A program made the position numbers and the translations under genes. A DNA stretch of 36,384 bases. Source: Raillietiella orientalis. Its lineage: Eukaryota. Below, in pieces: positions 1 through 24,239 of the stretch (the stretch's first letter is position 1; each line of letters opens with the position of its first letter). The notes under the pieces were generated by a model. The model had not been told where the DNA came from. It saw nothing but the letters and a program-made list of their open reading frames with translations, and made no database searches. The stretch covers positions 248,001-284,384 of the forward strand of contig JAYWIR010000088.1 of NCBI GenBank assembly GCA_036172245.1. The letters run 5' to 3'.

Positions 1-110
1 TGCAGACGTGTTTCCGCGTCTATCCGCGCCAACGATCGGGCAACTTTGTGCCTGCGGTTTTGCTCGCACTTGTGTGTTCCTGTGCAATCTGCCAAGTAGC
101 ATAGTGCAAC

Positions 111-1210
111 ATGGCCAGTACACAGGATAGTGTGAAGGAGCAAGCCACTGGATGCACTTCAGCTGCACTTGAAGTGGCCGCATCCTCCGTAATGGTTTCC
201 TCGCCCCCGGTGCGGAGTTACGCCGCCGTTACCTCCCAAAGACCAGGACCCTGCGATGCGGAGTTCCAGGCATATGTGTCATCAGGATACATGCCTGCAC
301 TCCGTTATAAGGTCAGTGGGCCACTTAACGAGAGAATCGGTCGTGAGCTCAATGATGAGCTCGTCCGGATAGGCGTTCGCGAGGAGGAACTCCTTGCCAT
401 AATGCCTGCTGGCAGGATGGAATATACAAAGATTCGGTGCAAGAACGCAGCACTTGTGCAGCGCCTTCTCCGTACGCCGTTGACCATCAATGGCAAGGAA
501 GTCCTACCTACCGCGATGGACGACTCTTCTGTCGTTCAATTGTGCGAAATCGAACCGGAAATCTCCGACCGCGATGTCGTAACTGTGCTGGCGAAGTTCG
601 CCACCGTGCACGCTCTGTGGAGAAGGCCAAATCCTATAAAGGATTTCCCCTCTGTCCACATTGGACAAGCCTCCGCGCGGATCGCCGTCGCGAACAGGCG
701 TGTTGTGCCTGAGCAGCTGCAGGTGAACGGCACGGTCGTTCACCTGTGGTTCATAGGCCAGACTCGCACGTGCGAGCGGTGCGGCAAGGATGGGCACCGA
801 ATTAAAGAGTGCCCCTCTCCAAGATGCCGCTATTGCAGAGATTCCGGGCACGAAATCAAAAAGTGCCCGGTACTTGCAAGAAAAAGAGCCGCAGCGGAAA
901 TTCGTCGGGTTCAAGAGACCACTGCACGAAGAGCCGCAGCGGCAAATAAAAAACGTCCGCAAAAACTCACAAAAAACCACGAGCGATCCGTGGATGGAAA
1001 GAAACCATCCCCGCCCGCAACGCCCCGAAAGGGGGAAGACACGGCGGGGAAGCCAATTAAAAAGCGGCGCGAGGGTTTAACGCGTGCCGTGCCCTCCTTC
1101 CCTGCCGAACTCGCAGGCACCTTTTCGAGCCAGGAACAAGGAAATCTCCGTAACACCCTGGAGGGAAAGGTAGGAAAACAGGAAGATCGCAACAATGCGA
1201 AGACTTCTTG
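111..1210 (+). pseudogene. ORF1 (gag-like nucleic-acid-binding protein) of A, C-terminally truncated
   Basis: Two CX2CX4HX4C knuckles (CERCGKDGHRIKEC, CRYCRDSGHEIKKC). The ORF 111..1502 runs on into ORF2-derived DNA after about 1210. Confidence 0.88.
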
Positions 1211-1212
1211 CC

Positions 1213-2079
1213 CCGTTCCGTTGTGCCTGGTTGCAGGAAACAGTTCGAACGTGGGGACAGTTCGGCATGCAACGCTCTTAACAGGAACGAAGGTTCCTGT
1301 CTGGGGGTTACAGAAGTTGCACGCTCCGCGAGATCCTGGAGGATCCAAAGAAGAGAGCGTGGGCAGGAAGAACCCCCCTCGCTGCTGCGCTGCCCTCCCT
1401 GAAGGAAGATCTGGACAGCGATGTTGCGGCGAAGTGGGAGGTTTCAGTTACAATCTCCGGAAAGGAGAAGATAGGAGAGTGGAAGACGGGGCAGCTAACT
1501 GATGCTGGGTCCCCGAGTACGCCTCCCAATGGACTTCTGCGCTGGGGCGCGCTGCTCGATGTTCCCATTGAACATCTGAAGTGGCCTCCGGTGCTCATGA
1601 ACACTTCCGCCCTCCCCTTAAAATGGCAGGAGTCGGCTCTCCTGTTGCAGCACTGGGGACTCCCCTGCAACGCCCGCCGACACCACTGGACCTGGAGAGC
1701 GGTGGACTCCAATTGCGTCAGGTGTGGGGAACGTGAGTCCCTCCCCCACCTGCTAGTGGATTGTGTTGCCCTTCGGCCCCTTTGGTTTCGCCTTGCCGCG
1801 GCCATCGGAATCCCCTGCGGCAACCCCAGGGACGCACTGAAAGCCCTCTTGGTTGCCGACGCCCTTCGGCCAGCGGCCTCGTTAGCAGTTTTGTGCTGCC
1901 TACCCGGGATCGTCACCGCTTGGAGCAAGGCTACGGGAGGAAAACGCGACCAGGGTGCCATCCAGTCAGCCTCCCAGTTCCTGAGGAGCGCGTCCCGATG
2001 GCCCCACCTAGATCCAGGAATACAGAAGGAGCTTGCCGGGATCCTGCAAAGGATGCAACGGCCCCACCAGCAACTGTGA
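1213..2079 (+). pseudogene. ORF2 C-terminal fragment of A with Cys/His finger
   Basis: LPLKWQESALLLQHWGLPCN...CVRCGERESLPHLLVDC. Closely matches the reverse complement of 10853-11715. Confidence 0.88.
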
Positions 2080-2295
2080 TTTCTTCCCTTACCCTCCCAA
2101 CTTTTCTTTTCTTTTTTGTTGTGTTTTCTGTTTTTCCCCTTCCCCCTGCTGCCGTGGTGGATCGTACCGGTCTGCGAACCGGTGACCCGGCGGGCTCTGT
2201 GTTTGATCGTGCGTGGCTGGAGCAATGGTCCAGCCACTGCACGTCTTTGTAAATGTTTATTTTACAATAAACGCCCCGGCGAAATCCGTGTGAAA
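2080..2295 (+). promoter_or_regulatory. Structured 3' UTR of A: pyrimidine tract, stem-loops, palindromic poly(A) signal, terminal hairpin
   Basis: Stems at 2149-2193 and 2208-2243, gtttatt/aataaac at 2255-2272, terminal ccccggc-gaaa-tccgtgtgaaa. Homologous blocks occur at five other 3' ends. Confidence 0.75.
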
Positions 2296-4013
2296 ATCGA
2301 ATGCTTTGCGGAAGTCGACAGCGACGGCGAAGGCTCCCGCCGATTCCGCCCCACCCTCTACCGGGTCTCTCTGGTCAGAGAGGTGCTCAAGGCTCTCTTG
2401 ACCGTCCTGTGCAACGCGCTGTTGCAACTGCCACCATGTGCTGGCGAGGAGCACGTTGGCTTCCATGGTTCGCCAGGGAACAGCGTATGTTTGCTCCGGG
2501 CTGATCACGGAATCCGCCACCGGTCCTAAACGCTCAGCCCACAATTTGGCATACAACTTTGCGTCCGCATTCACCACTGTCATGGGGCGCCAGTTGCTAA
2601 TGTTGCGTAAGTCTCCTGACTTCGGCAGGAGACGTACTTTTGCTGATCGGAACGAGGCGGGAACTTGGCCGTGTTCGTGGATCAGCGTACTTAGCCTGAG
2701 CACCAGAGGGGCCAGCTCTGTCGCGAAGTGCTTGTAAAACTCCGCGGGCAGGCCGTCCTCCCCTGGTGCGTTTCTTGTCTTTAATTTACTGATGGCGGAG
2801 ACAATCTCTGCCACCGTAAATGGTTCCGACAACCTGGAACATACTTCCTCCCCGATCGCGGGAGCCCCATCCGGCAGCAACCGCTGCGCGAATTGGCACT
2901 CGGGTGTTAATGGCGCGTACAAGGAGGAATAAAACTCCCGCACGATGCGGCTTACCTGGGCTGGGCTGGAGCGTTCTTGACCCTGATGGTCCAGCAATCA
3001 GGCCGAGCCTGACTGCCAGGCCTGCCTCTCCGCCTCAGCTTTGAATTCCGCCAGGCGACGAACGTCCGGACGTCCGGAATACCGGCGGGCCTGAAGGTAG
3101 GCTCGCTCGTTCCTGACACCTTCTTCGATGCCCGGAGGAAGACGCTCCAGGGGAAACTGTTCGCAAAACTCGCTGACTGAGCACTTCATTTCGTCCCAGT
3201 CCGCGAGCGTCTGAAGATGTAATTCTCGCAGGAAGGCGCGTAGATGTTCCGCCGCTCCTGCGAGGCGCAACCAGTCCCCTGGCAGGCGCCACGTTTTCAG
3301 GGGAGGGCCTTTATTTCGCGGATGTAACTCCAGCACGAGCCGTGGATGTTCGGACAGCTCTGCCGGGAGCGTTCCACGAGTTCCCACCCGCGTGCACAGG
3401 TGGTTGTCGAGGAACATGTGATCGAGGTTCCGATCTCTCCCGGGATCACCGGCCAACAAGTTGCGCGCATTCATTTCTGCGCACAACTCGTTGACCAGCT
3501 GTCCTCGCCTGTGGGGCGCACCTGCTAGCAGGCGGAGATTGAAATCGCCCGCAATGAGGTGCGCCCTCCGTACGCCTGCTTCAGCCAGGCAGTCTCGCCG
3601 CAGGGATTCGAGGAACGCAGTGCGTTCCTCGGCCCCGTGGTTGCTCACTGGCGCGTATATGTTCGTCACAACGAGGTCGATCGATTCGGACCACTTGAGA
3701 ACAAGCTGTCCAACTCGACCGTCCCCGTCGAAGCGAACGCTACGCAGAGAGTTTTCGACTGCCGGCTTCAGCAGAAAGCCACTCCGCAGGAGTAGTCTGT
3801 TCCGTTCGTCCACAGTAGCCGCCCTCCTGTGATTCTTTCGAAATCCTGGCCTGCTTCTGTTGTGAGCACGTGAGTCTCTTGCAGTAGGGCCAGGTCGAAG
3901 TCTCGCAGAATGGCGGCTACGTCTCGCCTCTTCCCGTCGCTGCTCAACCCGTTGACGTTCCAACAGGTTATTCGCAAGCGGCTAGAGGAGGCGAGTCCAC
4001 GCAATGGTGTTGT
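2296..4013 (-). pseudogene. ORF2 of B: APE endonuclease plus RT N-terminal part (frameshift near 3780, stop at 3000-2998)
   Basis: Motifs WNVNG, LLQETH, NIYAP, GDFN, LDH, SEH, then APGEDG, LLPKSGD, WRPMTVVNADAKL, DFRKAFD. Confidence 0.92.
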
Positions 4014-5752
4014 TATGGTGAAGTGGAAGAAACCGCCTCCTGTTCAGAAGACGGGTGGTCCGGGTCCATGTCGTTGGAGTGTTCAGGAGCATCGCTCACT
4101 CCGTCGGCCGTGGACTGTGTTAACAGTTGGTAAAGGATGCTCTCAGGCACGGAGTCGCATTGTGCAACGCACATGGACTCTTCCTCGCTGTCAGATGCCA
4201 TTTCGACCTCTTCCTGAGAGGTGACAGCACGCCTACGAGCACCTGTTGCATTTTTATATTTTCTTTTCGGCAAGCCAACGGAGGGCGAGTTCCCGCTTTC
4301 GGCGTCAGACTCGGAGGTTTCCGGGTCTTTTGCCGTAGCCGGACGTCGAACGGCCTTCTTCTCGGCCTTGACGGGCTGCCTCAGGAAGGCAGCCAACTCT
4401 TCCGCGGCTTGCGCGAAGTTTGCATCAGAGATGCGTTCCACGTCATCACGGATTTCGTCGCCTGTTGGCGAGTCGGGTGACGTAACAACCGATTCGATAG
4501 CGGCAACTGGCGCGCTATCGTTCGGAACCGCAGCGGCTGAGCTTTCGCTCGCCACTACAACGCTTCCAGTGGACTGGACTGGAACAATAGATTCGATCGC
4601 GGCAACGTGTGCCGCGCTTTCGATCGCGACCGTAGCGATTTCGCCGTACGAAGCCGGAACCGCTTTATCGATCGACCCCGCGGGTGCGGTATCGATCGAT
4701 GGTTTGCTTGTGGAAGCCTTCGCGCGAACGCGATCGATGTGCAGGGTGGAACGGCGGACGGTTTTTGCCACCATTTTCACCGTTTTCTTGGGGACCTTAC
4801 CTTTCCCTTTGCTCTCCTTTTTCACCAACTGCCAACTGTTTTCGGCGACAGTTTCGCCTTCCTCCGGTTTTTGTTCCACTGGCGTCGATATCTCGCCTGT
4901 CTGGGAGGTTTCACTCGATTGGGGATCCTGTTTTTCCGGATCCTGTGGCGACTCTGTTCTCTTGTTGCCAACAGGAGTGGAAGCAAAACGAAGAGGGCAC
5001 ACGTTTCTTACGTGGCCCTTGTTACCGCAGCGTAGACACACGATGTTGGGGCACCTCCGTTTAAGGTGCCCTGTAGTCTCGCAGTTTCCGCAAAATTTGG
5101 GTTTCCCTATGTACCACAGATCGATGTATTCTTCATCGACCTGAAGTCGGTGGGGTAAATTACTATCTTCGCGGACTGTCACACGCGTGGCGGCATAGCC
5201 ACTGAACGCCCTAGTATAGCCCAGGGTGTTCGGCTTAGCCCACAGAGCGTGGACGGTCCCGTACTTTTCCAGTTCCTGCCTAACGGCATTTTTCGCCATT
5301 CGCATCGTCAACCCGGTCAGGTGGATGACGATCGATTTGTCGGCAGTAAACGGGAAGATCCTTCTCCCGTTCACGGTCACCGGGCATCTCAGCAACTGCT
5401 GAGTCATTCTTGCAGTTCTGCAGTTCAGCTCGACTAGCTGACCGCCACTGCGAATGGAAAGGCCGAGAACTTCTTTCGGCACTTTCAGTTTTTTAAATTC
5501 CGCGGCAAACGTTCTCAACATCGCGGGAGAATAAAGCCCACCTACCTTATACAGTAGGGCCGGGTAGTATCCGTGGGACTCATAGGCCCGCTGTTCCTCG
5601 CATGGTGGCGGCGCGGGAGCCGCCACCACCGCACTGCCAGCCCTCGCCGGGGCGGGGGACGAATCTGTAGGGGAGATGGCCCCCACATCCATGGGCTGAG
5701 GGGACGAGGCACGCCCGTAAACCTTTTCCGCACTGGCGGTGTCCTCAGGCAT
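4013..5752 (-). CDS. ORF1 of B, open reading frame intact
   Basis: The first ATG (MPEDTA) matches paralog starts. Knuckles CGNCETTGHLKRRC and CLRCGNKGHVRNVC, low-complexity acidic C-terminus, TAA at 4015-4013. Confidence 0.88.
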   Translation of the reverse strand: MPEDTASAEKVYGRASSPQPMDVGAISPTDSSPAPARAGSAVVAAPAPPPCEEQRAYESHGYYPALLYKVGGLYSPAMLRTFAAEFKKLKVPKEVLGLSIRSGGQLVELNCRTARMTQQLLRCPVTVNGRRIFPFTADKSIVIHLTGLTMRMAKNAVRQELEKYGTVHALWAKPNTLGYTRAFSGYAATRVTVREDSNLPHRLQVDEEYIDLWYIGKPKFCGNCETTGHLKRRCPNIVCLRCGNKGHVRNVCPLRFASTPVGNKRTESPQDPEKQDPQSSETSQTGEISTPVEQKPEEGETVAENSWQLVKKESKGKGKVPKKTVKMVAKTVRRSTLHIDRVRAKASTSKPSIDTAPAGSIDKAVPASYGEIATVAIESAAHVAAIESIVPVQSTGSVVVASESSAAAVPNDSAPVAAIESVVTSPDSPTGDEIRDDVERISDANFAQAAEELAAFLRQPVKAEKKAVRRPATAKDPETSESDAESGNSPSVGLPKRKYKNATGARRRAVTSQEEVEMASDSEEESMCVAQCDSVPESILYQLLTQSTADGVSDAPEHSNDMDPDHPSSEQEAVSSTSP

Positions 5753-5847
5753 TTCTGCCTTGAAAACACCGCCCAAACACCACACAACCTACAAAATCGC
5801 GCTCAAATGCAGGAGCAGCAAAAAAAACACGTCTGCCGTCACTGCGG

Positions 5848-6630
5848 TTTTCACCCGGATATGCCGGGGCATTTATTTCGAAAAATAAAAATACATTAAT
5901 TTTTCCAGTGGAGAACCCGAAGGCGCACCATGCCAAAACAGCTTGCTGGTTGCCGGCGCTAGGCCGGAGAGGTCCTTCCCATGCGCGGGGATGGGAAATA
6001 AAGAAAAACAAAGAAACAAAAAGTTCAAATGTTCAAATGCGAACGCCTCGAGTGCAACAATGATGTCGCGGTCCGTGATTCTCGGTCGAATGACCGAGTG
6101 CTGGACCACGAAAGATTGGTCCTGGACCCAGGGGATGGCCTCCTTACCCCTTATTTTCAGGGGGGTTCGCAGTAGGCGCTGGACGAGGGCTGCATCCTTG
6201 CAGTGCACCTCCCAATGGCCTACCGCCTTTACTGGCATAAGCGCTAGGAGATCGTCCTTTCGGACCCCAACGCGTTCCAGCTCGCTCCAGAGCTGGTGGC
6301 TCGTCCCATCCCGGTACGCAGCACTGACCTTGTAGGCCATTGGGGCGTTGTAGCCACTCACGGCGTACGCCCGCAGCTCTGCCTTGTCGGGTGGGGCTCA
6401 GTGAGCCGCCGCTGCCTTAGCAACGGCGGCAAAACTTCTCGATGGAGGCGAGGGACTATCGGTGGAGGCTTCCACTCCTCCCGAAGATCCTGCGACGCAG
6501 CGGGATTCCTCCACCTCCATTTCTGCGGACACTGGCTTCATTTTCAAATAAAAAATCGCACCACACCCAAAACGAACAGCCGCAAAGATGCATTAAAGAC
6601 GGAGCGCAAGAATGCACGTCCGAAAAATGA
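5848..6630 (-). mobile_element. Element C: about 780 bp non-autonomous deletion derivative with both termini
   Basis: 5' end tcatttttcggacgtg. ORF1 N-terminal remnant at 6541 to about 6040 (GYNAPMAYKV...VQRLLRTPL) joins directly to a T-rich 3' UTR, AATAAA and terminal hairpin cccgg-catat-ccgggtgaaaa. Confidence 0.85.
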
Positions 6631-6922
6631 AGGGGGTCGGCTGTACTGGCAATGCGGCCTCCGCAACACCTGCGCGGTCGCGTTCTTCGTCAAGCCAGCC
6701 ATCGTCACTGCCGTGAAGGGTGCACTCTTTGAGGACGACAGTCGGGTCGACCAGCTGATTGTCAGGTGGTCCGACTCGATCGATCTGATCGTCACAAACG
6801 TGTATGCCTCCAGCGGCAGACAGGGCTACAGCTAACGAACCAGGTTGCTGGAAACCCTGAAACGCGACTAGCTACGGAAATCAGCGTGCGAAAGGCTCAC
6901 CTGATAGCGGAAGATTTCAATC
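6631..6922 (+). pseudogene. Fragment D: isolated endonuclease-domain segment
   Basis: GGRLYWQCGLRNTCAVAFFVKP...NVYAS...HLIAEDFN, homologous to 26262-26555 and 34860-35150. Confidence 0.88.
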
Positions 6923-6999
6923 GAGTGCGGACGTGTTTTCCTTCGCTCTCGCCTCCGTGCTTTCATCCGCTTCATCTTGGCGTCGTACATTTTGACGAC

Positions 7000-8921
7000 G
7001 ATATCGACCCAACCCGAAGCAACTAAAGTTGGAGGAACAGCATCCGGATCTGAATCGCGGAACCGACGGCCGCCCCCACTACGTCTTTCTCGCGAATGGA
7101 GAGGAGTTTTGCTGACGTTGCTGCCACAGCAGCCGTCAAAGGGAAACCACTCGACGAGTCGGAGTTGCGGGCATAAGTAGCCCAAGGCTATAGACCTGCT
7201 CTCCGATATAAGGTGAGTGGTTTTCTTTCTGCGCTCGACGGGAATCAGTTCAACGATGAACTGACCCGTGTTGGCGTGCGGGAGGAGGACCTCCTCGCCA
7301 TTATGCCCGTAAAGGATATGGGCTATTTCAAGGTGCGTTGCAAAGACGCTGCACTTGTGCAGAGCTTGCTGCGCACCCCGTTGTCGATCCGTGGCCAGAA
7401 GGTCTTCCCGGCCGCCATGGACGACTCATTTGTGGCGGAGATTTTCGACATCGAGTCGGAAATCTCCGATATTGATATTCGGAACGCGTTGGCGAAATTC
7501 GCCACGGTCCATGCGCTGTGGAGGGTGCGTAGCAACCTCAAGGACTTCCCGTCCATACACAGCGGAGTCGCTGGAGTCCGGCTTAAAATGCCGGACCGCC
7601 GTCTGCTGCCCACCAAACTACAGGTGAAAGACACGGTCGTTCACCTGTGGTTCGTGGGCAAAGTAAGAACGCGCGAGCAATGCGGAAAGGAGGGGCATTG
7701 TTTGGATAAATGCCCCTCTGGAAAATGCCGTTATTGCAAACTATCGGGACACCAATTGAAAAATTGCCCGGATCTTTTGCGAAAAAAGGCAGCCGCGAAG
7801 CTCCATTTTAAAAAACAAAGCGCGGATAAAAAGAAAAAATCAGGGAAAAACCTGGAGACCTCACGGCAGAAATTCCGAAAAAACGCGAGGCGGAATGTCG
7901 CCCCAAAGCAGCAGCAAACCTCGCAAGCGAAGCCCTGAGCGCCCTCTCTCTTGGCAGGGGAGCCGCAAAAGAAAGGGTGCGGGGAATCTGGGGCAATAAT
8001 AAGTCCCCCTAGGCGCAATAGCTGTCTTTCCCAAGCCCGCTCGGCTCTCTCGGAGTTCGAGCAGCCGGCGGGGACGCCAATGGACAACGGCGGTAAGGAC
8101 ACTTCCAGTACCGTCAGATCCATTCCTTCACCTCCTGCAGTGGCTGAGAAGCCCAAATCGGGTAAGAAGGGTTGTGCCGTGTCGACTTCGAAAGTCGACA
8201 AAAAAAATCCGCGTCGCGATCCAACACCGCGAAAGCGGAGAAAAATCTCACGCCGTCGCAGTCGGAGAGCAAGCTCTGGACTGGCGCGGATGCCATGCCA
8301 ACGGAGGGATTAAAAGCCCTTCCGAAAGCAGCGTCCATGACGAGCGTGTCGGAGTCATCGAAAGTGCTCCCGTCCAAAGACGCGGATGGCTTCAAAGATG
8401 GCAATGGAGCACAATCTCCATTTACGGCGCCACGCAAAGTGAGGAACCGTAATGAAGTAAAGAAGACTTCAGCAAAGGTCCCTCGGGCAACTGCGCGTGA
8501 GCACGCTGAAAACGCGCGCGCAGGGAAAGCAGCCGTCACCAAAAGCGATGCTCTGGAGACGGAAAAAGACAACAGGACAGCTGTCAATCCAGCAGAACCT
8601 GTCACTGCTTCGCGGAAGGCCGAAACCCGATCGAACATGCGCCGGTCGGACTCCGAAATGGATGCCGTTCCGATCACCGAGACGAGGACAACTCGTTCGA
8701 AAGCGTGTGCGCGCCTATCAAAAGTAGGCAGCGAGGCAACGCTCGCCGCGAAGCAGCGCGAAGTCTCCACGAAACCCGACGGGGTTAAGCCTGGCGTGGA
8801 GGAATTGCATGCATGCAGCACGACGGAGGACGGTGGCAACCGTCATCTCCAGCCAATCGTGCTGCTCGCCGTCTGCTCGCCGGATAAAGCGAGCAAAAAG
8901 CCGCCACCTTCCCAGCAGTAA
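7000..8921 (+). pseudogene. ORF1 of E1 (disrupted; start approximate)
   Basis: ORF 7213..7938 is clearly similar to ORF1 of A. Knuckle CRYCKLSGHQLKNC. Internal stops and frameshifts. Confidence 0.82.
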
Positions 8922-10636
8922 TGCGGGGAATCGCGTCTTCTCGTCGTCTGTCCGTAACGTGTTGGAACGTGAACGGACTACAGAACGACGAGAAGGGGCG
9001 ATTAGTAGCCAACGCCCTGCGCCCCTTCGACCTCGCGCTCCTGCAGGAGATTCACGTAATCTCCGACGTGAAGGCAGCCGAAATCGAGGAGCGCGCAGGG
9101 GAAACGCTACATTGGCGGTGCGGCGGCGCACACACGTGCGGCGTCGCGTTCATCGTAAGATGAAAAATGGCGGAAGCGGTGCGTAGTGTTCGTTTCGATG
9201 ACGACGAACGGATAGGCCAGCATGTCATCAAGTGGTCCGAGTCTATCGATCTCATCGTTACGAACGTCTACGCGCCGTGTGGCTCTCGCTACCTCGAAGA
9301 AAGAGTAGCTTTCTTTGGTGAGGTGCAGAGCCACTGGCTCAACAACTCCGGCTTCCAAGTGGCGCACCTCGTCGCTGGGGACTTCAACGTCCGCCTGCTG
9401 TCCGACGATTGGAGCCGCCCGAGGGAGCGCGCGCTGCCCATCGAGATGTGCGCGTCCGTGCACGCCGCCAACTTGATGGTCAGCGAACCTGGAATGGAAA
9501 GATCTCTCGATCACGTTTTCCTCGATGGAAACCTGCATTCGCGTGTGGGTAGCAGAGGAAGATTGTTGACTAGGCTTTCCGACCACCACAGGTTGGAGTT
9601 TGGGATCCTTCCGCCAGGCAGGGGGCCTCCGTTGCAAAACTGGAGGATACAGGTGGATTGGCATAGCCAACCGGAGGCTGCGGAGCATCTACGTGGATAC
9701 CTCCGAGGCTTTGCCATTCAAGAACTTGCGGACTGGGACGATCTGAAAAGATCTGTCCGCGAGTTCTGCTGCCAATTCCCCTTGCACCGGCTTCCACGCG
9801 GTTTCGGAGAGGGCGTGGCCAACAGCAGAGACTTTCTGCAGGCCCGCACGTTTTCGAGACGCGCGGATGTCGGGCGTCTCGCGGAGTACAAGGCGAGAGC
9901 CGAGCGCCAGGTCTGGCAGTCCGGAGCAGCATTCCTGTTCGACGACAAGGACCAGGAATGTTCGGCCCCAGCCGAAGTACGCCGCATTGTGAGACTCTAC
10001 TACTCCTCGCTTTACGCGGAATCCCCGACGGAGGATATTCTCTCTGAGATACTCCTGTCTCAGGATGCTGGTGTTGTCGGCGAGGAGGAACGCGAACGTC
10101 TGAACGAGCCCTTCACGGCGGATGAATTTTAGTCCGCCATCGCTGGGCTGAAGAGACGAAAGGCGCCAGGCGAGGATGGGCTCCCTGCAGAGTTTGATCA
10201 GTGCTTTGCAGTGGAGCTCATTCCCTTGATGCTGAGACTCGCGACGCTGATGAGTGAATCCGGGAATGTCCCGGATTCCTTCCGCTCAGCGAAGGTGCGT
10301 CTCCTGCCGAAAGGCGGAGACTTGCGTCAACTTAACAACTGGCGTCTGATCACCTTGGTGAACTCGGACATCAAGTTGATTTCCAAGCTGTGGGTCGCGC
10401 GGTTAGAAAGTATCGCGGAATCTGTGGTGAGCCTGGAACAAACCTACGCGGCTCCGGGACGATCCATGGAGGCGAACATCCTTTTCGCGCGTACATGTAT
10501 GCAGCTGCAGGAAGTTGTTGCGCAGCAAAGACAGGCTGCTGCGAAAGTCACTGCCGCATGCAAGAACAGGCGCCGACGGCAGGAGGGAACGCCAGGTGCC
10601 TTGGCGCTCGCGGTCGATCTCCACAAGGCGTTCGAT
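8921..10636 (+). pseudogene. ORF2 of E1, endonuclease plus RT N-terminal part (in-frame stops at 9161 and 10130)
   Basis: Motifs WNVNG, LLQEIH, NVYAP, GDFN, SLDH, SDH, LLPKGGD, DLHKAFD. Confidence 0.92.
10622..10635 (+). repeat. Target-site duplication of E2, left copy (cacaaggcgttcga)
   Basis: Identical 14-mer at 22116-22129. The other paralogous KAFD sites in the window differ at 2 or more positions. Confidence 0.85.
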
Positions 10637-12987
10637 TTTCACCCGGATTTCTCCGGGTCGTTTATTTAAAAAATAAACTTTGTAAACAAATTATTAATGG
10701 CTGTGGCAATGCTCCAGCCAGAAGCTAAGAACCACGGTGCCTGCCAATTCACCGGTTTCTAGACCGATACCGTCCACCAAGGCAGCAGGGGAAAGAAGAA
10801 AAACAAAAACACTAAAGAAAAAAAAAAAAGGGTGGGAGAGAACGGGAAGGGATCACTGTTGCTGCTGGGGCCGCATCATCCTTCTCAGGATGCTGACAAG
10901 CTCTTGTTTGTTGTGAACATCCAGGTGGGGCCATCCCGACGCCCTTCACAGGAATTTGGAGGCGCACTGGATGGCGTTTATATCGCTAGGTCCTCCCGTC
11001 GCCGTGCTCCAGGCGGCGACGATCCCACGAAGGCAGCACAAGTCTGCTATGGAGGACGCTGGCCGCAGGGCGTCGGCAACGAAGAAGGCTTTTAGAGCGT
11101 CCCTGGGGTTGCCGCAAAAAATACCGATGGCCGCGGCAAAGCGGAACCAAAGGGGCCGAAGGGCAACACAATCCACTAGGAGGTGGGGGAAGGACTCCCG
11201 TTCCCCACACCTGACGCAATTGGGGTCCACCGCTCCCCAGGTCCAGTTGTGTCGGCGGCCGTTGCAGGGGAGTCCCCAGTGCTGCAACAGGAGAGCCGAC
11301 TCCTGCCATTTTAAGGGGAGGGCGGAAGTGTTCATGAGCACCGGGGGCCACTTCAGATGTTCAATGGGAACATCGAGCAGCACGCCCCAGCGCAGAAGTC
11401 CATTGGGAGGCGTACTCGGGGTTTCAGCGTCTGTTAACTGCCCCGTCTTCCACTCTCCTATCTTCTTCTCCTTTCCGGAGATTGTTACTGTAATCACCCA
11501 CTTCGCCGCAGCATCGCTGTCCAGATCTTCCATCAGGGAAGGCAGCGCAGCAGCGAGGGGGGTTCTTCCTGCCACGCTCTCTTCTTTGGATCCTCCAGGA
11601 TCTCGCGGAGCATGCAACTTCTGTAACCCCCAAACAGGAACCTTCGTTCCTGTTTGCCGCGTTGCATGCCGAACTGTCCCCACGTTCGAACGGTTTACGG
11701 CAACCAGGCACTACCGTTCAACGGGCGACAGGTGAACAATCCTGGGTTTTTCGGATACAGCGCAGCCACCCTCCGTAGCTGGAGTCCGCATCGGTTGACG
11801 CGGCGACGGAGTGCAAGAAACGACGTCAGTCCCGTCTTGCCGGTGGCTTGCTGGAGTAGGAGACGTGCAGGGACGCACCAACAGGTGCACCACAACTCTG
11901 GAACGAGTGCCGACAAGCGGAACTGGAGCTGAAGCTCCAGCCGCTCCAGCGTCAGGAGGCCCAGACCACCATCCCGACGAGGAGCGCACAAGTCCTTTAA
12001 GCGGACTCGGGCCCTAACGTTGCCTCAAGGGGCGATACGGAGAAGGTCCTTCGTCCGCTTTTTGATCCTCTCTGTAAGGGGGCAAAAAAAAATGCAGGGA
12101 GCGGAGGAGAGGAGCCGCGAACGTGTTGCAAACCGCGGCCCGTTCAGGCAGGGAAAACCTGCCGCCTCGGAACGGGCCGATAGCCGTCTCTACTTTTTGG
12201 AGGCAGCCGGACCACGCTTCCGCAGGGGAGTAGTCCCCCAACGGCACACCAAGGTACTTGAAGTACCTCACCGTGGGGATCCATAAACGGACCCAGTCCT
12301 GCTGCCCTGCCCACGCCGCACCAACTGGCATCACGGACGACTTCGCCCTGTTCACCGTGAGTCCGGTTCCCCGATGCAGCAGGTCGAAGAACTCCTCGAC
12401 CGCCGCAGCCCGGGTGGACATAGGGTGCAGCAGCAAAAGGTCGTCCGCGTATGCTGAAACGGCCGGCGTACCGGCACAGTCGTGCGGCAGGTGCGCCAGA
12501 GTTCCCCTGTACGCTCTCAGTACCAACTCAAAGTAGGTACTGAAGAGCAAGGGGTCCAGGCTGTCTCCCTGCCGGATACCAGGTCGCACCGGCACGCCGT
12601 GCACGGTCTGCCCGCTGAAAGTAACTTCGATGATCGCGTCGCTCCAGCAGGAGCGCAGATAGGCCACTAATGAGGACGGGAAGCCCAAGCGTTCGAGAAG
12701 CTCCAGAAGGAGATTCTGGTCGACGCAATCGAATGCTTTCTGCAAGTCGATTGCGACCGCAAGGGCTCCCTTCCCCACCCGTCCATCCAACCCCCTGCCG
12801 GCGCACGCATTGGAATTCCGGCTGCGCACCAAGCTCCTTTCTTGTTGGAGCTCTAGCCAGGCGGATGCGTGGAACAGGTTCGCCTCCATGCTTCGCCCGG
12901 GAACAGCATAAGTCTGTTCCCGGCTGATGAAGATGTTGGCAACCCTTCCCAGACGCTCTGCCCAAACCTTAGCCAGCAACTTGGCGT
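10636..12987 (-). mobile_element. Element E2, 3' half (RT core, C-terminus, 3' UTR)
   Basis: AKLLAKVWAERL, DLQKAFD, GIRQGDSL, AYADDL, KYLGV, CVRCGERESFPHLLVDC, stop at 10855-10853. Terminal hairpin acccgga-gaaa-tccgggt. Confidence 0.92.
12973..12987 (+). repeat. Target-site duplication of E3, left copy (ccagcaacttggcgt)
   Basis: 14/15 match to ccagcaacctggcgt at 18884-18898, directly flanking both termini of E3. Confidence 0.8.
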
Positions 12988-13156
12988 GCGGACGTGTTTT
13001 TGTAGCGCTCCTGCGCGCCTGGTGTAAAGCGTTTGGTTTCTTTTGTGTATGTGTGTGGAGAATCTGCGGTGTCCAATGGCAGAAATACCTGAGGACACCG
13101 CGATGGATATAGGAGGGGGAGAGGCTTGCCCCTCTCCCCAACCCACGGGGGTGGGG

Positions 13157-13348
13157 GCAACCGCCCCCACGGAGGCGACGGCAGCCGCACCCCTGAAAAA
13201 GGGGGCAACCGTCGCCTCGGTAGCAAGGGCAAAGGCCCCCTTGAAAAAGGGGGCAAAAGCCCCCCTGGAACAGGGTGCAACCGCCCCCTTGAAAAAGGGG
13301 ACAACCGCAACCGTGGAAACTGGCGCAATTGTTTACTTGAAAAAGGGG
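13157..13348 (+). repeat. Coding 24-bp tandem repeat, 8 units (ATAPLKKG-like)
   Basis: Consensus gcaaccgcccccttgaaaaagggg. Confidence 0.88.
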
Positions 13349-14778
13349 GCACTTGCACCCTCGAATGCGTCTTCGGCATCGCCAAAGACCTGGAGTCCAG
13401 TGTCTGCAGCCCCATCTACTGGAGCCCTCGCCGAGCAGAAAGCCTACCTGGAGCAGGGATACAAGCCGTCCCTGAAATACAAGGTAGGCAAACTGTTTGT
13501 CGGAAACACCGCTTGCAACTTCGAAAGAAAGTTGCAGCGGTTGAACGTAAAAGAGGAAGACCTGGAAGGTCTTTCCGTGTTGAGTGGTGGTCAGCGGGTG
13601 GAGCTGACTTGCAGAAATGCAAGCCTTGCTCAACACCTCCTGAATACGCCAATCACACTGGAAGCCCGAAAGGTTTTCCCGGTAACGGAGGATCGCTCCG
13701 TGGTGACGCACCTCACGGGAGTCACCCTCCGCATGGCGAAAGCCGACGTGCAGGAGGAACTCGGAAAATACGGAACGGTTAACGCGCTATGGCCCAAGCC
13801 CAACGTCTTTCGGAGTTACGAAAGACTGTTTAGTGGCATGGCTGGTGCGCGTGTAACCGTCCACGAAAACGGTGGGCTACCCCACAAACTAGACGTCGGC
13901 AACGAGACCGTCGACGTCTGATACGTGGGCAAGCCCAAGTACTGTGGACACTGTGATGCCACAGGGCACCTGAAAAAGCGGTGCCCTCACATCCAGTGTT
14001 TCCACTGTGGAGAGAAGGGCCACCTCCGCAAAGTGTGCCCGAAGCGCGAACCTCCGGCTCACGCTGCTTTGAAAAAGGCCAAAGGGAAAGGCGCGGAGGC
14101 TACGGAAAACCCTGCGAAGTTACCCGTGAGGCGGAACCCACAGCCGGAGCCCGAGCTGCAATCGCCGATCGTGGAATCTATCGACGACGCTGAAAAGAAC
14201 GAAGGCTGGCAGAAGGCGAAGCCTAAAGCTAAAAAACCAAAGAAAACCGCAGGATCGACAGCGGAACCCGCGACGTCTCCTTTAAATAGGAGACAACGCC
14301 GCGCGTTGATTCGCGAATGTTCGGTCGCTTTGGAGCGTGTGTAGGTAGCCGAGACCGCCAACGGGGGAGATATCCCCCGCGTCGACGCCGACGATAACGC
14401 GATCACGGAAGGCGAACCCTCTGTGCAAACAGAGGGGGAACCGCGCGACGCGCTCGCCGCGATCGACGAGGCCGCCTTCCAGCAGGCGGCGGAAGAGCTC
14501 GCGGCCGAACTCGCCGACCGTAAAAACGGCGCGCGAAAGGCCTTGCGAAGGCCGGCCGCGACCAGGGCACCTTCGACAGGTGACCACGAACCGGATGCCG
14601 GAAGTGCGTCCTCTTCCACGGAGGCGCCTCCGAAGAAGACTGGACGGAAGTCCAGGAATCCCAAGAGGGGCATCCCGACAAAGAAGGAGGGGGACGCACC
14701 GGCATCCGAGGGGGAAGCCGGCAGCGTGGGAACGGAGGGAGGGATTTTCCCACCCTCCGCTACCTAGCAGCTGGAGAC

Positions 14779-15008
14779 CCCGATGGAGGAGGGGGATAAG
14801 GTGAGTGATTGCCGCCCCCACCCAACGGTGGAATCTGTCCAGGAGATAGCCATGGAGGAGGGGGAGCAGACAGCTGACAACCGCTCCCCCCTGCCGTCCA
14901 ACGCAGCCGACGAATCGGCCCCCATGGAAGAGGGGGAGCAGGTGCGTGGAACCCGCCCCCTTCAACCGTTGCGGTCCGCCGAGGAAGCGGCCCCCATGGA
15001 GGAGGGAG
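14779..15008 (+). repeat. Four spaced (P)MEEG acidic repeats at the ORF1 C-terminus
   Basis: atggaRgaggg recurs about every 70 nt. Also seen at 25845-25993, 31126-31355 and 34442-34590. Confidence 0.8.
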
Positions 15009-15090
15009 AACCGGTGCGCGTTGATCCCGTTCCTCCATCCGTCCCGCCCGACCAGGTGGCGGGAGCCCCATTGCCACTTTCCCAGGAGTA

Positions 15091-18000
15091 AAACCTGGGC
15101 TCGCCTGTCGCCGTCGATTACGCGTGGCCTGCTGGAACGTGAACGGGCTGCGCGACGACGGCAACAGACAAGACACGGCCGCCACCCTGCGTGACTTCGA
15201 CCTGGCACTCCTGCAGGAGATCCACGTGATCACCGCGGAGAACGCCCAGGAGATCGAAAGGATCGCAGGGGGACGGTTGATGTGGCAATGCGGCACCAAA
15301 TACACCTGCGGCGTCGCGTTTTTTATGAAGCCGGCAGTCGACGCAGCCGTGAAGAGCGTGCGCTTCGACGAAGCCGGTCGTGTCGGCCAGCTGATTCTCA
15401 AATGGTCCGACACGATCGACATCGTCGTAACAAATGTGTACGCTCCGAGCGGTCCTACCAGGTACCAGGAACGTAAGGCGTTCCTGGAAACCCTGAAGCG
15501 CGACTGGCTGGTGGAAGCGAGCGTGCGCGTGGCTCACCTGATAGCGGGAGACTTTAATCTCCGCCTTCTATCAGGTAAGCCACACGCACAAGAACGGACG
15601 GCTAACGAGTTGTGCGCCGCCATGCGCACGCGCAACTTGTTAGGGGATCTTTCGGAAATGGTCAGCAGCATCGACCACGTCTTCCTGGATGTCGACCTGT
15701 GTTCACGGGTCGGCAAACGAGGGAAAGTTGCGTGGGAGCTGTCTGACCATTTCCGGTTGATATTCGAGGTGTGCCCGCGCGACAAGGGTTCCCCATCCAG
15801 GGCGTGGCGTCTGCCTGGGGACTGGACGCGACTCTCAGGTGCGAAGGAACACCTTCGCGAATTCCTGAGAGGCGTCACCCTCCGCAGTCTCAAGGATTGG
15901 GACCTCTTCAAGGCCTCGGTCCGCGAGTTCTGCGAGGAGTTTCCCCTGCACCGCCTGCCCCCCGGATTTGGGTAGGGGGCTCGGAACCATAGGGCTTATT
16001 TACAAGCCCGCCGGTACGAGAGGACCCCCAATGTCCGTCGCCTGGCAGAGTACCGAGCCGAGGCCGAACGTCAAGCCTGGCAATCCGGATCGGCCAGCTT
16101 GCTGGACGACCAGGGCCGGGAGCACTCGGCTCCGGCTAGAATACGGCACCTCGTGCGGCGTTTTCATTCCTCCCTTACGCCAGGGCGCCCCCGGACCAAG
16201 ATACCTCTTGGCGCTTGCTTCCGAACGGTGCCCCGGCAATAGGGGAGGAGGAGAAGGAAAGCCTCGACGAGCCTTTTACCACCGGCGAAATTCTCGCCGG
16301 TATCAAAAGGCTGAAGATACGGAAAGCACCAGGGGAGGACGGCCTGCCTGCGGAGTTTTTTCAATGCTTTGCGGGAGAGTTCGCACCCCTGGTGCTTGAG
16401 TTGACAAGGCTGATCCGAGATGAAGGCGATGTACCCGCCTCGTTTCGGTCAGCCAGAGTGAGGCTCGTTCCGAAAGGAGGAGACCTCAGGAAACTCAGCA
16501 ACTGGCGTCCGATCACAATTGTGAACACGGACGCCAACTTGATAGCCGGACTGTGGGCTTCGCGTCTGGGGCAGGTTGCCAATTCCATAATTAGCCCGGT
16601 GCAGAATTACGCTGTTCCCGGGCGAAGTATGGAGGCCAACCTCTTCTTCGCGAGCACATGGTTTCATGTGCAGAGTAGTCAAGAAAAGGAAGAGGGAAGG
16701 ATTGGCAGCCCCGCTTTAGGGGCGTCAGCCGGGCAGGGACAGGACTCCCAGGTGGGGAAGGGAGCCCTAGCGATCGCAGTCGATCTGCACAAAGCGTTTG
16801 ACTGCGTGGACCAGGATCTCCTGCTGGAGCTCCTGGGACGCATGGGCTTCCCTCCCTCCCTACTGACCTACCTGCGCTCTTGCTGGCGCGGCGCGCTGAT
16901 CAATATCTCTTTCAGAGGTCAAATGGCGTACGGCGTGCCGGTACGGCGGGGCATACGGCAGGGCGACAGCCTCAGTCCCCTGCTCTTTAGCACCTACTTT
17001 GAGTTGGTGCTGAGAGCGTACAGGGTGACTTTGGCCCCCTTGCCGAGCTCGTGCCCCGTCACGCGCGCCGTAGCAGCGTACGCCGACGATCTTTTGCTTC
17101 TGTTGCCGATGTCCACCCCGGCGAAGGCGGTCGGGGATTTCTTCGATCTGCTTAGCCACGGGACCGGACTTACGGTGAACAGGGCGAAGTCGACGGTGGT
17201 TCCAGACGGTGCGGCGTGGGCTGGTCAGCAGGACTGGGTCCGCTTAAGGATCCCCACGGCGAGGTGCTTGAAGTACCTTGGTGTGCCGTTGGGGGACTAC
17301 TCCCCTGCGGAAGCGTGGTGCGGCTGCCTCCAAAAAGTGGAAGCGGCGATCGGCCCGTTCCTGGAAGAGAAGTTCCTTCTTCCGGAACGGGCCGCGGTAT
17401 GGAACGCGTTTTCGGCTCCTATCCTCCGCCCCCTGCTTTTTGTTTGCCCTGTCCCCAGAGAGTTGAAAAAACGGACGAAGGACCTCCTGAGAATTCCCCT
17501 TTGGGGAAGAGGGGGGCCCCGAGTCCCGTTGAAGGACTTGTGTGCTCCACGTCGGGATGGCGGTCTTGGCCTCTTGACGAAGGAGCGAGTAGAGATTGAG
17601 CTGCGGTGGCGAACCGTCGCCATCGCAGCGAAGTTATGGAGCACTTCTTGGTGCGTTCCGGTCCGACTTCTTGCCAGCCGTGTATCCGGAACGGAGGGTC
17701 TCGCGTCCTATCTTCTGTGCCGTGGCAGGAAGATCAAGAGATGCGGACTTCTCCTGGGACGCATTGCAACTCTGGCTAGGGAAAACGGCTGGATGGTATG
17801 CAGCCCTGCCAACTCCTCCGCATGTCTGGAGGAGGCAGCTGGCACGTAGGCGAAGATTAATGAAAAAAATGAAGAGATGTGGAACTGCCTGCGACGCGGC
17901 GCCTATTCCCGCTGCACTCTGCGGAAGATACACCAGTGTCCCGTGAGAAGCACGTGGGCAGAGGCAACCCCCCTAGCTACGGCGATGCCCTTCCTGAGGA

Positions 18001-18677
18001 GGGCGCTCTCCAGCAGCCGCAAGCCTAGGGGGCAAGTCTCCTGCCGCATCGCAGGCAAGGAGAAGTTGATCAGCGGCTGGTCCACGGGTGAACTGGCGGA
18101 CGCCAGTATCCCTACTGTCCAGCCGAGAGGACTCCAGAGATGGGGTGAGCTACTCGGCATCCAGCCGGATGACCTCAAGTGGCCCCCGGTATTAATTGGA
18201 TCTAGGATCCTCCCCCTGAAGTGGCAGGAGTCGGCGCTTCTGTTGTTGCATTGGGGTCTACCCTGCAACGCACGTCGCCACCACTGGACCAGGGTTCGTA
18301 TAGATCCTACCTGCATCAGGTGTGGGGAACGGGAAACACTCCCCCACCTCCTTGTTGATTGTACTGCACTCCGACCCCTGTGGGAACGTCTTCGTGCCTC
18401 CCTACGGATCCAGGAGGGCAGCCAGCCCAGAGACGTTTTTCGGCTTTTGTTCGTGCATGATGCCCTGCGGCCAGCCGCTACCCTGGCTGCACTTTGCTGC
18501 GTACGCGGGATTGTGACGTGCTGGAGCAACGTCAGAAGACCGAGCGACGACAGGAATGCCGTCGTACTTGCAGTCCGCTAACTGCGGATTGTGACCAGAT
18601 GGCCCCACCTGGGAATTACACGGACGGACCTCGAGGGCATCCTGCGAAGGATGGACCCTCCTCTCAGTGGTCAGTGA
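15091..18677 (+). pseudogene. ORF2 of E3: APE endonuclease, reverse transcriptase, C-terminal Cys/His finger (stops and a frameshift)
   Basis: WNVNG, GDFN, SIDH, SDH, KAPGEDG, WRPITIVNTD, DLHKAFD, GIRQGDSLSPLLF, AYADDL, KYLGV, CIRCGERETLPHLLVDC. Confidence 0.95.
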
Positions 18678-18883
18678 TCCCTCCCCAACCTTCCCAAATC
18701 TTTTTGTTTTTACGTTTTAATTTTCTTTTTGTTTTTTCCACCACCCCCTTCCGCTGCCGAGGAGAGTCGCGCCGGTCTGCGTACCGGCGACCCGGCAGGT
18801 CCAGTTGAGTTGGCCGTAGTGGGGCCTCGTTCCACGAATCAGAGAGAAATTTTAATAAGCGCCCCGGCGTGACCGGGTGGCAA

Positions 18884-20345
18884 CCAGCAACCTGGCGTCC
18901 GCATTCACTATTGTGATGGGACGCCAGTTGTTCATGCTCCTCAGATCTCCTCCCTTAGGGGGGAGCCGCACCTTTGCCGAACGAAACGAGGCGGGAACGT
19001 CACCTGTTTCGCGTATCAGCAAGGTGAGTTGCTGTACCAGGGGGGTAAGCTCAGCCGCGAAAGTTTGTTAAAACTCCGCGAGCAGTCCGTCCTTCCCTGG
19101 AGCCTTTCGCCTCTTGAGCTTTCCGATGGCCGAAAGGATCTCGTCCATCGTGAAAGGCTCGTCGAGACTCCTTTTCTGCACCTCCCCGATCGCTGGAGCG
19201 CCTTCCGGAAGCAGGAGTCGTGAGACGTTCCTCTCCGGAGGTGCCCTGGCATACAGGGAGGAGTAGTAACTCCGCAGCAGGCCGCGGATTTGCGCAGGTG
19301 CCGAGTGCTCCTGGCCCTCATCGTCCAGTAAGCTGGCTGATCCGGACTGCCAGGCTTGCCTCTGGGCTCCCGCTTTGTATTCCGCTAGCCTGCGGATGTC
19401 GGGGGTCCTGACGTAACGACGGGCCTTCAGGTAGGCTCGTTCGTTACGGACCCCGGTCCCGAAACCCGTAGGTAGGCGCTGCAGAGGGAACTGGTCGAAG
19501 AGCTCCTGGACCGAGCGCTTGAAGCGGTCCCAATCTAGGAGTGTCCGCAGCCTGAAGCTCCGTATGAACGTGCGGAGATGTTCCGCCGCGTCCGAGCGCT
19601 TCAGCCAGTCCCCTGGGAGACGCCACGCTGACGAGGGGGGGCCCCTGTCGCGCGGATGGATCTCGAGGACTAGCGGGCGATGGTCGGACAGCTCGCACGG
19701 TAACTTGCCGCGCCTGCCCTTGCGAGGGCACAGGTGCTCGTCAAGAAACACGTGGTCAATGCTGTCTTCCATGCCCGGTGCACTGGCGAAGAAATTACAG
19801 GTGTGCACAGCCATGCACACCTTGTTGACCAGGTCACGCTCGGGATTCTGCCCATCTGGTTCCAGACGAACGTTGAAATCGCCTGCAACCAGATGGGCAT
19901 TCCGCACGCCTGCCCCGGGCAACCAGTCGCGATGGAGGGCAAGGAAAAACTCTTTCCTCGCCCTCCTGGTCTTCAGGTCCGCGCCGCTCGGTGCGTACAC
20001 TTTCGTGACGATCAGATCGATCGAGTCGGACCACCTGAGAGTCAGCTGGCCGACACGACCGTGATCGTCGAACCGCACGCCCCGAGCCGCGGCCTCGACG
20101 GCTGGCCGAAGCAGGTAGGCGACACCGCAACTTTTCGCTCTCCCACACCTGTACCATAGCCGCCCTCCGGAGATCCGTTCGATCTCTTGCGCTTGTTTTG
20201 CAGAGATCACGTGGATCTCCTGCAGCAGCGCAAGGTCGTAGGACTCGAGAAAGGCGACCATGTCTCGTCTCCAGCCGGCGTCTGTCATGGCGTTCACGTT
20301 CCAAACGGCGATGCGCAGACGACGGCGGGAGGAGATTCCCGGCAT
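18884..20345 (-). pseudogene. ORF2 of E2, endonuclease plus RT start (stop at 19070-19068)
   Basis: WNVNA, LLQEIH, VYAP, GDFN, SIDH, SDH, KAPGKDG. Confidence 0.92.
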
Positions 20346-22021
20346 TACTGCTGGGAAGATTAAGGTGTGGGGGAGCCCTCCTCTTGCGAGGCGGGCGGGA
20401 TGTCCATGGGGGTTTCGGCCTTCTCAGGCACCTGAGGCACCTGTTCGGCCTCCACCCCCTCCATCCCTTCCGTGTCTGTGCGTGGGAGTCTCTCGGGCGA
20501 CGGGTCCAGAGAGTCTCTTACGCTCATGGCACCCTCGCTTGCGGAAGCCATCTCTTCCCCTTCGACGGGGGAGACGAGCTTTCTTGGCTTTGTGGACTTA
20601 CGTCCAGCCTTCTTGCGCGGTGCCGTGTAAACGGAGGCTGCGCTTCCGGCCTCCACCTCGGGGTCGGAAGTGGGGGACTCCTGAGGAAAGGCCGGACGCC
20701 TTACGGCCTTCTTGCCAGCCTTGGAGGGTTCTGGCTGCAACGAGGCTGCCAGCTCCTCCGCAGCTCGCGCGAAGGCTACGTCATCGATGGTGGTATCGAT
20801 GACGGACGCCGTCGCCGGCTCGCTCCATTCGCTATTGACTGTGTCAACAGAGGGGAGGTCGTCGGTAGCGGCGAGTTCTTTCCGGCAGCGTTCGGCAACA
20901 TCGAGAACGCGTTCGACAACGACGCTGCACTCTTTAATCATCGTGCTACCCTGCTTTTTGATCTTCTGTTGGTAGGCGAATTTCTTTTCCATCCTCCTCT
21001 CCTTCTTTGATTTATCGGCCGTTGCCACTTGCGACCCAGTCTCCTGACCGGCTCCCTCAACTTTTTCGGCGTTGTTCGCCGGGGTCTAGGGTGCAACCTG
21101 GGTCTTGGGCGCGGGTGGCACAGCCTTCGCGGCAGCTTTCGCCGCCAGCCTTTTCTGCAGAAGCCGGGTGCGGTTTTTAAGGTTTCTCTTGGAAGCCACC
21201 CGCACTGCTGCTTTCGGGCACACCTCCCTCGTGTGGCTTATTGTGCCGCATACTTGGCACTGCACATTGGGACACCTCTTTTTGAGGTGGTTCGACGTAT
21301 TACAGAAGCCACAGTATTTCGGCTTCCCCACATACCAGAGGTCGACGGTTTCGTCTTCGACCACCAGCTTGTGGGGAAGAGTGCAGCCCTCCCGAACGGT
21401 CACGCGCGCAACAGTGAGCCCGTGTTGCAGCCCCGTGTAGTCCTCGAAAGGACTCACTTTCGTCCACTGCGCGTGGACCGTTCCGAACTGTTCCAAAGCG
21501 GCGCGAAAGTGTTCTTTGCGCATTCGCGCGGTGACGCCTAACAGGTGGACCACCATGCTGCGGTCCGCCGTAGTGGGGAGAAGCCTGCGCGTCCCCATCA
21601 CAACGGGGGTTTCAAGCAGTCGTTGGGCCAGCTCTGCATGTTTGCAGATGACCTCAACGTACTGACCCCCGCTGCGGATGGCCATAGCGCTAAGCTCCTC
21701 CACTTTCACATCGAGAGCGCGCATGCCCTGCGAGGAGGCGCGCGCGCTCTCTAAAGAATATAAATTGCCTACCTTGTAGAACAATGAGGGGTTGTACCGC
21801 TCCTCTACATAGGCCGACAATTCCGCCGCGGCTGCAGGCGATGGCGCCGACTCAACAACGTTCCGCGCCGGCGCTTCAGCGGGAACCGATTCTGTGGGGG
21901 CGGATGCCCCCACCTCAATCGCCTCTGGGGGCGACGTTGATGCCGCCTCCTGGCTCTCGATCGCCTTTGGGGGCGGCGTTGTCGCTGCCCCCTGGCCATC
22001 CCTGGTGGTCGCGTCAGGCAT
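20345..22021 (-). pseudogene. ORF1 of E2 (disrupted)
   Basis: MPDATT start. Knuckles CGFCNTSNHLKKRC and CQVCGTISHTREVC. Stops at 21088-21086 and 20362-20360. Confidence 0.88.
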
Positions 22022-22115
22022 CGCTGCCTGATCGACCAACGAACCACACGACGCTTGCACTGGGGAAGACTTCTTGGCACGAGGAGCATCGAGAGAACAC
22101 GTTCGCCCTAGAGCG

Positions 22116-24221: not shown

Positions 24222-24239
24222 CGCCGAATCGCTTGGCGA

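Follow-up and report, generated by a model that had tools for sequence, protein, structure and literature searches.

How did two long interspersed nuclear elements (LINEs) come to be joined, at the same nucleotide, to two other LINEs of markedly different sequence? This question is raised by a 36,384-nucleotide stretch of Raillietiella orientalis DNA (GenBank assembly GCA_036172245.1, contig JAYWIR010000088.1, positions 248,001 to 284,384 of the forward strand), referred to below as the window and numbered from its first letter. The window contains no non-LINE sequence; apart from 31 spacer bases and the first base, its entire 36 kb is covered by L1-like pieces from several lineages that are mutually 60-80% identical. 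Both junctions lie in the codons for the KAFD motif of reverse transcriptase (RT). On balance, we favor an account in which L1-like LINEs entered the RT genes of two LINEs from different lineages through two separate target-primed reverse transcription (TPRT) events, both at the same nucleotide, with a genuine preference for the KAFD site behind the recurrence.

Two inserts are joined to the same nucleotide of the KAFD codons

Pieces were placed by tblastn with one element, designated H, as a ruler, combined with the sequences of the junctions. The first insert, A (2-2296, plus strand; 2.3 kb), has the 3' terminus CCGTGTGAAAA and abuts the first host, B (2297-5836, minus strand), whose 5' end is at 5836 and which carries open reading frame 1 (ORF1), an apurinic/apyrimidinic endonuclease (APE)-type endonuclease (EN) and the N terminus of RT before it is interrupted at 2297, after TTCGA of the KAFD codons. 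The 3' part of the second insert, E2 (10636-12987, minus strand), comprises RT from the DAKLLA region, a C-terminal zinc-binding region and a 3' untranslated region (UTR) ending in a hairpin and GTGAAAA; it abuts the 5' part of the second host, E1 (6927-10635, plus strand), which runs from the 5' UTR through ORF1, EN and RT as far as the KAFD TTCGA. The exact junctions fall at 2296/2297 (A to B) and 10635/10636 (E1 to E2), and on the insert strand both are seamless, reading ...GTGAAAA followed by TCGAA. On the plus strand, positions 2281-2310 read gaaatccgtgtgaaaa followed by tcgaatgctttgcg (on the minus strand, cgcaaagcattcga followed by ttttcacacgg), while positions 10622-10646 read cacaaggcgttcga followed by ttttcacccgg. 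The junction strings given in a preliminary description of this locus are both present, but the true junction is shifted by one base: because the insert end ...CCGGGTGAAAA, with four A's, recurs beside an unrelated flank in another piece, Q, the T of "GAT" was assigned to the insert and the host ends in TTCGA.

The second insert is interrupted in turn. Its 5' part, G (18884-22115, minus strand), holds the 5' end, ORF1, EN (encoded at 19458-20381) and the RT N terminus in a frame contiguous with E2; G stops at the H-equivalent position ~16545 and E2 begins at ~16530. Two perfect (14/14) copies of a 14-bp target-site duplication (TSD), CACAAGGCGTTCGA, bracket G/E2 on the plus strand: the left copy (10622-10635), preceded in E1 by ...CTC, ends exactly at the junction, and the right copy (22116-22129) directly follows the 5' end of the minus-strand G. 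At this point host 2 resumes as I (22116-24221, plus strand; RT from KAFD on, C terminus and 3' UTR), so that E1 and I rejoin into a single open RT frame, ...AVDLHKAFD then CVEQELLLELL (H equivalent, HKAFDCVDQDLLLELL). Element H itself (12988-18883, plus strand; full length, 5.9 kb) is flanked by a 15-bp TSD, CCAGCAACYTGGCGT, at 12973-12987 and 18884-18898, with one mismatch, lying in the antisense DAKLLA codons of the G/E2 RT. The 14-bp and 15-bp TSDs, together with frame continuity, therefore place H inside G/E2 and G/E2 inside E1/I at the KAFD codons. G/E2 is a full-length element, measuring 5.6 kb alone and 11.5 kb with the nested H.

The junctions record a nick of the host sense strand at 5'-AAR GCN TTC GA^Y, whose 3'-OH primed cDNA synthesis on the 3' end of the insert RNA; with the sense strand as primer, the inserts are therefore antisense to their hosts. 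A second nick 14 bp upstream gave the TSD of G/E2. As in L1 twin-priming inversions, two LINE segments abut here in opposite orientation; in twin priming, however, both arms derive from one RNA within one TSD pair, whereas the arms here belong to different lineages and the TSD brackets only the antisense G/E2. On these two grounds, twin priming and hairpin or snap-back synthesis were rejected.

The shared position is unlikely to reflect chance

Matches to the target pattern AARGCNTTYGAY number six in the window, against 0.21 expected from shuffles, and each is an RT KAFD codon block; since E1 and I hold two copies of one duplicated site, the six matches represent five independent sites. The shorter string GCRTTCGA is nearly confined to the same places, with 5 of its 8 occurrences in the window at KAFD sites.

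The two inserts also resemble each other at their 3' ends. Both terminate in CCG(T/G)GTGAAAA, as part of a common 3'-terminal module in which a CCCGG...CCGGG hairpin, with (A/C)GAAAT as its loop, precedes GTGAAAA; A and E2 are 90% identical over their last 31 nt, compared with 64% in the UTR just upstream. The E2 hairpin folds at -13.2 kcal/mol (z = -4.5). Single folds of four of six 3' ends contain the CCCGG/CCGGG stem, only that of E2 being individually significant; automatic alignment of the six ends was poor, and their consensus fold was uninformative. Both 3' ends with the GAAAT loop lie at KAFD (2/2), while H, I and K, whose hairpin loops differ, have other flanks and sites.

If insertion were uniform, two inserts would share nucleotide and orientation in a ~6-kb unit about once in 12,000 pairs, which by our own arithmetic amounts to ~0.2% over the ~28 pairs among ~8 junctions in the window. 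The alternative that survives best is nevertheless coincidence, with two independent TPRT insertions that had no sequence preference being brought together by chance and by a general hot zone between EN and the RT N terminus. Such a zone is apparent: all placeable host breakpoints (2297, ~5837-5847, 6623, 6926, 10635, 12987/18884, 26887 and 32945) fall within H-equivalent ~15235-16801, i.e., ~1.6 kb or about a quarter of the 5.9-kb unit, the inserts being mostly antisense to the host, and no motif is common to the nick sites of other inserts (H, GCTGG^C; K, GTCTC^A). Yet even within 1.6 kb and two orientations, the same nucleotide would be hit only ~1 in 3,000 times per pair, and the 3'-terminal module common to both KAFD inserts is missing from those at other sites. 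We consider coincidence an improbable explanation.

Host divergence argues for independent insertions

The preliminary description saw similar inserts in dissimilar hosts and proposed a sharp drop in identity at the junction as the sign of independence. The inserts are indeed more alike than the hosts: A 1223-2295 and the reverse complement of 10636-11710 are identical at 911 of 1,069 positions (85.2%), while B 2297-3369 and E1 9563-10635 agree at 660 of 1,073 (61.5%), with shuffled sequences giving 43%. No sharp local drop occurs at the junction, however; identity falls most steeply (from ~95% to 72%) within the insert, near 1850. The close kinship claimed for the inserts thus holds over A 1223-1850 (93.4%) but not over 1851-2296 (73.6%); at finer scale, identity with E2 is 93-98% over 1295-1790, 72-74% over 1889-2167 and 64% over 2168-2265 before the conserved terminal 31 nt. 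On the host side, B and E1 are 56-69% identical away from the junction and 47% in the first 100 nt. The junction itself is flanked on both sides by short conserved blocks, the end of the insert (90%) and the TSD region (11/14).

Insert A is an internally deleted chimera whose E1-like 5' UTR and ORF1 (2 to ~1205) are fused to an ORF2 C terminus and 3' UTR (~1205-2296). Its ORF1 is 52% identical to that of E1 and 32% (amino acid) to that of G, and its ORF2 C terminus shows 84% protein identity to that of E2. In the low-identity part, A, E2 and K are roughly equidistant, so at least one insert is recombinant or the assembly switches between paralogues.

Mosaic blocks are not limited to the KAFD inserts. 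The E2-H junction recurs identically between K and M as ...CTTGGCGT followed by GCGGACGTG (10636-16800 versus 26888-32945); identity across it is 81/85/87%, with no step, and blocks of 63-99% alternate along the pair. This suggests that E2-H and K-M are one copied composite, modified by gene conversion, recombination or assembly switching. Because the shared junction shows no identity step, composites do get copied in this island, with sequence exchanged between copies, and for that reason the case for independent KAFD events is built not on levels of identity but on codon positions, the TSD and the structure of the inserts. A fixed site for each lineage, with an H-like family at the DAKLLA codons, was considered but rejected as unsupported: the 3' flanks of H, I and K all differ, and E2-H versus K-M looks like a single copied event.

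Copying also underlies the second alternative, namely that a single ancient insertion was followed by duplication of host and insert together; the inserts would then appear younger than the hosts only as a result of later gene conversion or of assembly switching between paralogues. BLAST does join 1220-4003 and 11714-8922 in one 71.9% block spanning the junction, the neighboring E2-H and K-M junctions are copies of this kind, and 63-99% mosaic blocks are common in the island. However, the divergence between B and E1 is concentrated at third codon positions, which is impossible for a dead composite. Over 481 aligned codons, identity at positions 1, 2 and 3 is 64.9%, 75.3% and 44.0% (nonsynonymous divergence dN, 0.356; synonymous divergence dS, 1.98), and a second, independent frame assignment gives 63%, 74% and 47%; B and E1 therefore diverged as functional lineages under purifying selection, before the KAFD interruption. 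At neutral sites, the drop across the junction does emerge: host third positions (214/486, 44%) are far more diverged than the insert 3' UTR (155/215, 72.1%; Fisher p = 6e-12). Furthermore, the 5' halves of the inserts are unrelated and one of them holds H, and the hosts are as strongly diverged as had been claimed, with 32% amino acid identity in ORF1 and 54.9% in EN-RT. A copied composite is thus a poor candidate. Altogether, the third-position divergence of the hosts, the separate 14-bp TSD of G/E2 and the unrelated 5' parts of the inserts give good support to the earlier proposal of independent events: the two KAFD insertions are very probably independent, and a single ancestral composite cannot explain all of the data.

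We likewise give little credence to homology-guided homing. In this scenario, a KAFD-resident master is transcribed past its 3' end, and the antisense KAFD sequence carried along pairs with a nicked site near KAFD in a second LINE, so that the junction is reproduced with no need for a sequence-specific endonuclease. In its favor, conservation near the junction is highest at the KAFD codons (11/14 positions between B and E1, versus 47% in the next 100 host nt) and both junctions are seamless; against it, the TSD copies of G/E2 are identical (14/14) and end exactly at the junction, as for a plain nick, and no transduced flank was found anywhere in the window.

A preference for the KAFD site is suggested by the two events

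Under the favored account of two TPRT events with a site preference, the endonuclease that mobilizes this type of 3' end would prefer the KAFD sequence, a target that every LINE of the island would offer, since the sequence encodes a conserved motif. Insert A, which is without EN and RT and hence moved in trans, would presumably have been mobilized by a G/E2-type element recognizing its 3' end. The pair of insertions suggests that one lineage prefers the KAFD site.

Several observations weigh against this preference. The number of events is only two, so the description of the insertions as targeted is less secure than that of their independence. Of the five independent KAFD sites in the window, three hold no insert, namely those in the RT of E2 itself (12728-12739, minus strand), in H (16791-16802, plus strand) and in K (28973-28984, minus strand). 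The 5' flank and TSD of A fall outside the window, and the 3' end of the RNA has no complementarity to the primer strand. Counting both strands, the window holds 49 copies of the bare hexamer TTCGAY, and a preference for 6 bp alone would leave a repeat hit only mildly improbable or even fairly likely, short of true site specificity. The association with the 3'-terminal module is likewise imperfect: Q has the same terminal 11-mer, CCGGGTGAAAA, with a different loop (CATAT) and a site other than KAFD, and K, whose ORF2 is 79% identical to that of E2 and whose loop is of another type, sits in the endonuclease region of J. Mosaic identity blocks run throughout the island; whether they arose by recombination, gene conversion or assembly switching, they make identity by itself a weaker argument. 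Finally, metagenome, prokaryote-contig, peptide and HMMER searches yielded no further junction copies outside the window.

In these searches, a metagenome scan with the 3'-end pattern returned 22 loci, all unrelated and bacterial in appearance, none of which BLAST matched to the window, and a protein pattern from the E2 C terminus matched 66 stretches of prokaryote genome contigs, none encoding a relative. The read-through junction peptide (...KAFDFHPDFSGSFI) gave 17 near-length and 147 longer candidates, none of them scoring. Among the 150 matches listed for an HMMER search with the junction ORF of B, only P0001 was close (60%), and its KAFDCVDQ is intact; P0046 and P0047 are unrelated LINE gene models.

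One sequencing run, X1, contains 0.17 of the sampled words, and its contigs show relatives. A contig of 3,755 letters aligns to 6893-10635 with 121 differences and spans the junction between P and E1; its match ends exactly at 10635, and 7 further letters remain. In a B-like contig (2297-2671), the match begins exactly at 2297 after 18 other letters. The KAFD sites of these relatives may be empty or filled differently, and the run neither confirms nor denies filled sites.

The remainder of the island consists of nested LINEs

The GC content of the window is 59.5%, and CpG is not depleted. Besides the elements above, the map comprises Q (5848-6622, minus strand), P (6623-6926, plus strand), J (24242-26887, plus strand), K (26888-29232, minus strand), M (29233-32945, plus strand) and N (32946-36384, plus strand). 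By order of containment, P appears to hold B with A inside it, Q, E1/I with G/E2 and H inside it, and J with K, M and N nested successively within.

Two pairs of elements lie head to tail with spacers of about TSD length: on the minus strand, the 3' end of Q lies 11 nt before the 5' end of B (5837-5858; spacer, 5837-5847), and on the plus strand, the 3' end of I lies 20 nt before the 5' end of J (24210-24250; spacer, 24222-24241). This arrangement is expected if the nick site of the first insertion was re-used. Like the 2.3-kb A, Q (775 bp) is internally deleted, retaining the 5' UTR, a portion of ORF1 and the 3' end without EN or RT, and the two are likely nonautonomous riders.

Self-BLAST revealed that the N-terminal part of ORF1 contains tandem repeats of 96-bp period in H (13153-13351) and M (29398-29706). 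The 7-mer CTTGGCG occurs 11 times in the window (both strands); three of these copies precede the 5' ends of H, M and J by 1 to 3 bases (12980-12986, 29225-29231 and 24232-24238, respectively), and those at H and M belong to the host TSD. A begins at the second base of the window (GCAGACGTGTTT, positions 1-3), which ends in ...GTCGATCTCCACA (36360-36384), 11 bases before the KAFD nick site of N. As both contig ends match element landmarks, the assembly probably breaks at repeats.

The elements are L1-like

Six-frame ORFs on both strands recurrently encode zf-CCHC (in ORF1), Exo_endo_phos (the APE endonuclease), RVT_1 and a subthreshold zf-RVT. In H, Exo_endo_phos scores 46.8 bits (cutoff, 24.5) and RVT_1 77.5 bits (cutoff, 29.6), with similar values for other copies, so that an APE-like endonuclease precedes RT, as in L1-group LINEs; zf-RVT, at 23 to 24 bits, remains below its cutoff of 27.5, and zf-CCHC, at 18 to 24 bits, lies around its cutoff of 20.8. 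Among solved structures (PDB chains), the closest to the RT is human L1 ORF2p (E = 8e-36, versus 1e-15 for R2). The best named database relatives of the RT are L1-like proteins of Chara and plants (24-26% identity), while one unnamed metagenome protein reaches 68%; the ESM Atlas returned generic RT clusters only. A poly(A) tail is not present, the 3' ends consisting of a hairpin and 3 to 4 A-rich bases (GTGAAAA, GTGGCAA or GTGATAA). L1 lineages with stringent 3' recognition are noted in passages of PMC3472496.

Discussion

Among known systems, the island most resembles the Zepp and ZeppL elements of the L1 clade in Coccomyxa, Chlamydomonas and Chlorella, whose published descriptions depict islands of nested L1-group copies; clusters of nested Zepp elements of 1.5-42 kb with a high GC content of 61% are described in passages of PMC3446292. 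Here, the island spans 36 kb, is LINE only and has 59.5% GC, and LINE-in-LINE nesting with TSDs, as in Zepp-like clusters, is found for H in G/E2 and for G/E2 in E1/I. The likeness is one of description, and there are differences. Unlike the Zepp arrays so described, which consist mostly of 3' ends left by 5' truncation, many pieces in the window keep their 5' ends and are cut by later inserts, and several lineages of only 60-80% identity coexist here. The same descriptions of Zepp do not report a fixed nucleotide target.

Target-specific LINEs of the APE type are found in the Tx1 and R1 clades, and transposons are among their targets (passages of PMC4640811). As in those clades, an APE-endonuclease LINE would here insert at one nucleotide of a multicopy target, in this case with two events only; unlike theirs, the target would be a protein-coding RT motif of other LINEs. 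Re-use of a nick site, as at the head-to-tail pairs (Q and B, 11 nt; I and J, 20 nt), recalls the tandem transposable element dimers formed by double insertion at one site, as outlined in bioRxiv 10.1101/158386, but such dimers as outlined there involve one physical site, whereas the KAFD case involves a homologous site in two host copies. In the open-access literature searched, no report of a LINE aimed at the RT codons of other LINEs was found.

More tentatively, the LINE lineage marked by the GAAAT-loop hairpin and GTGAAAA might have an endonuclease specific for the antisense KAFD codons and be "hyperparasitic," living in rival LINEs and knocking them out; such motif specificity might then supply the mechanism still missing for how LINE-only islands of the Zepp type, which are candidate centromeres, are seeded and grow. 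We regard this extension as possible but doubtful.

The known targets of target-specific LINEs are rRNA, snRNA and tRNA genes, repeats and a DNA transposon; Tx1L, for instance, sits in the Tx1D DNA transposon. Nested Zepp-like clusters and target-specific LINEs are thus each familiar, but a preference for the RT codons of a rival would be new. If true, a LINE that uses the most conserved RT codon block of other LINEs as a safe haven would represent a new class of target and a direct form of competition between retrotransposon lineages, and it could offer a molecular explanation for the way Zepp-like elements insert into copies already present and build the LINE-only islands that coincide with centromeres in green algae.

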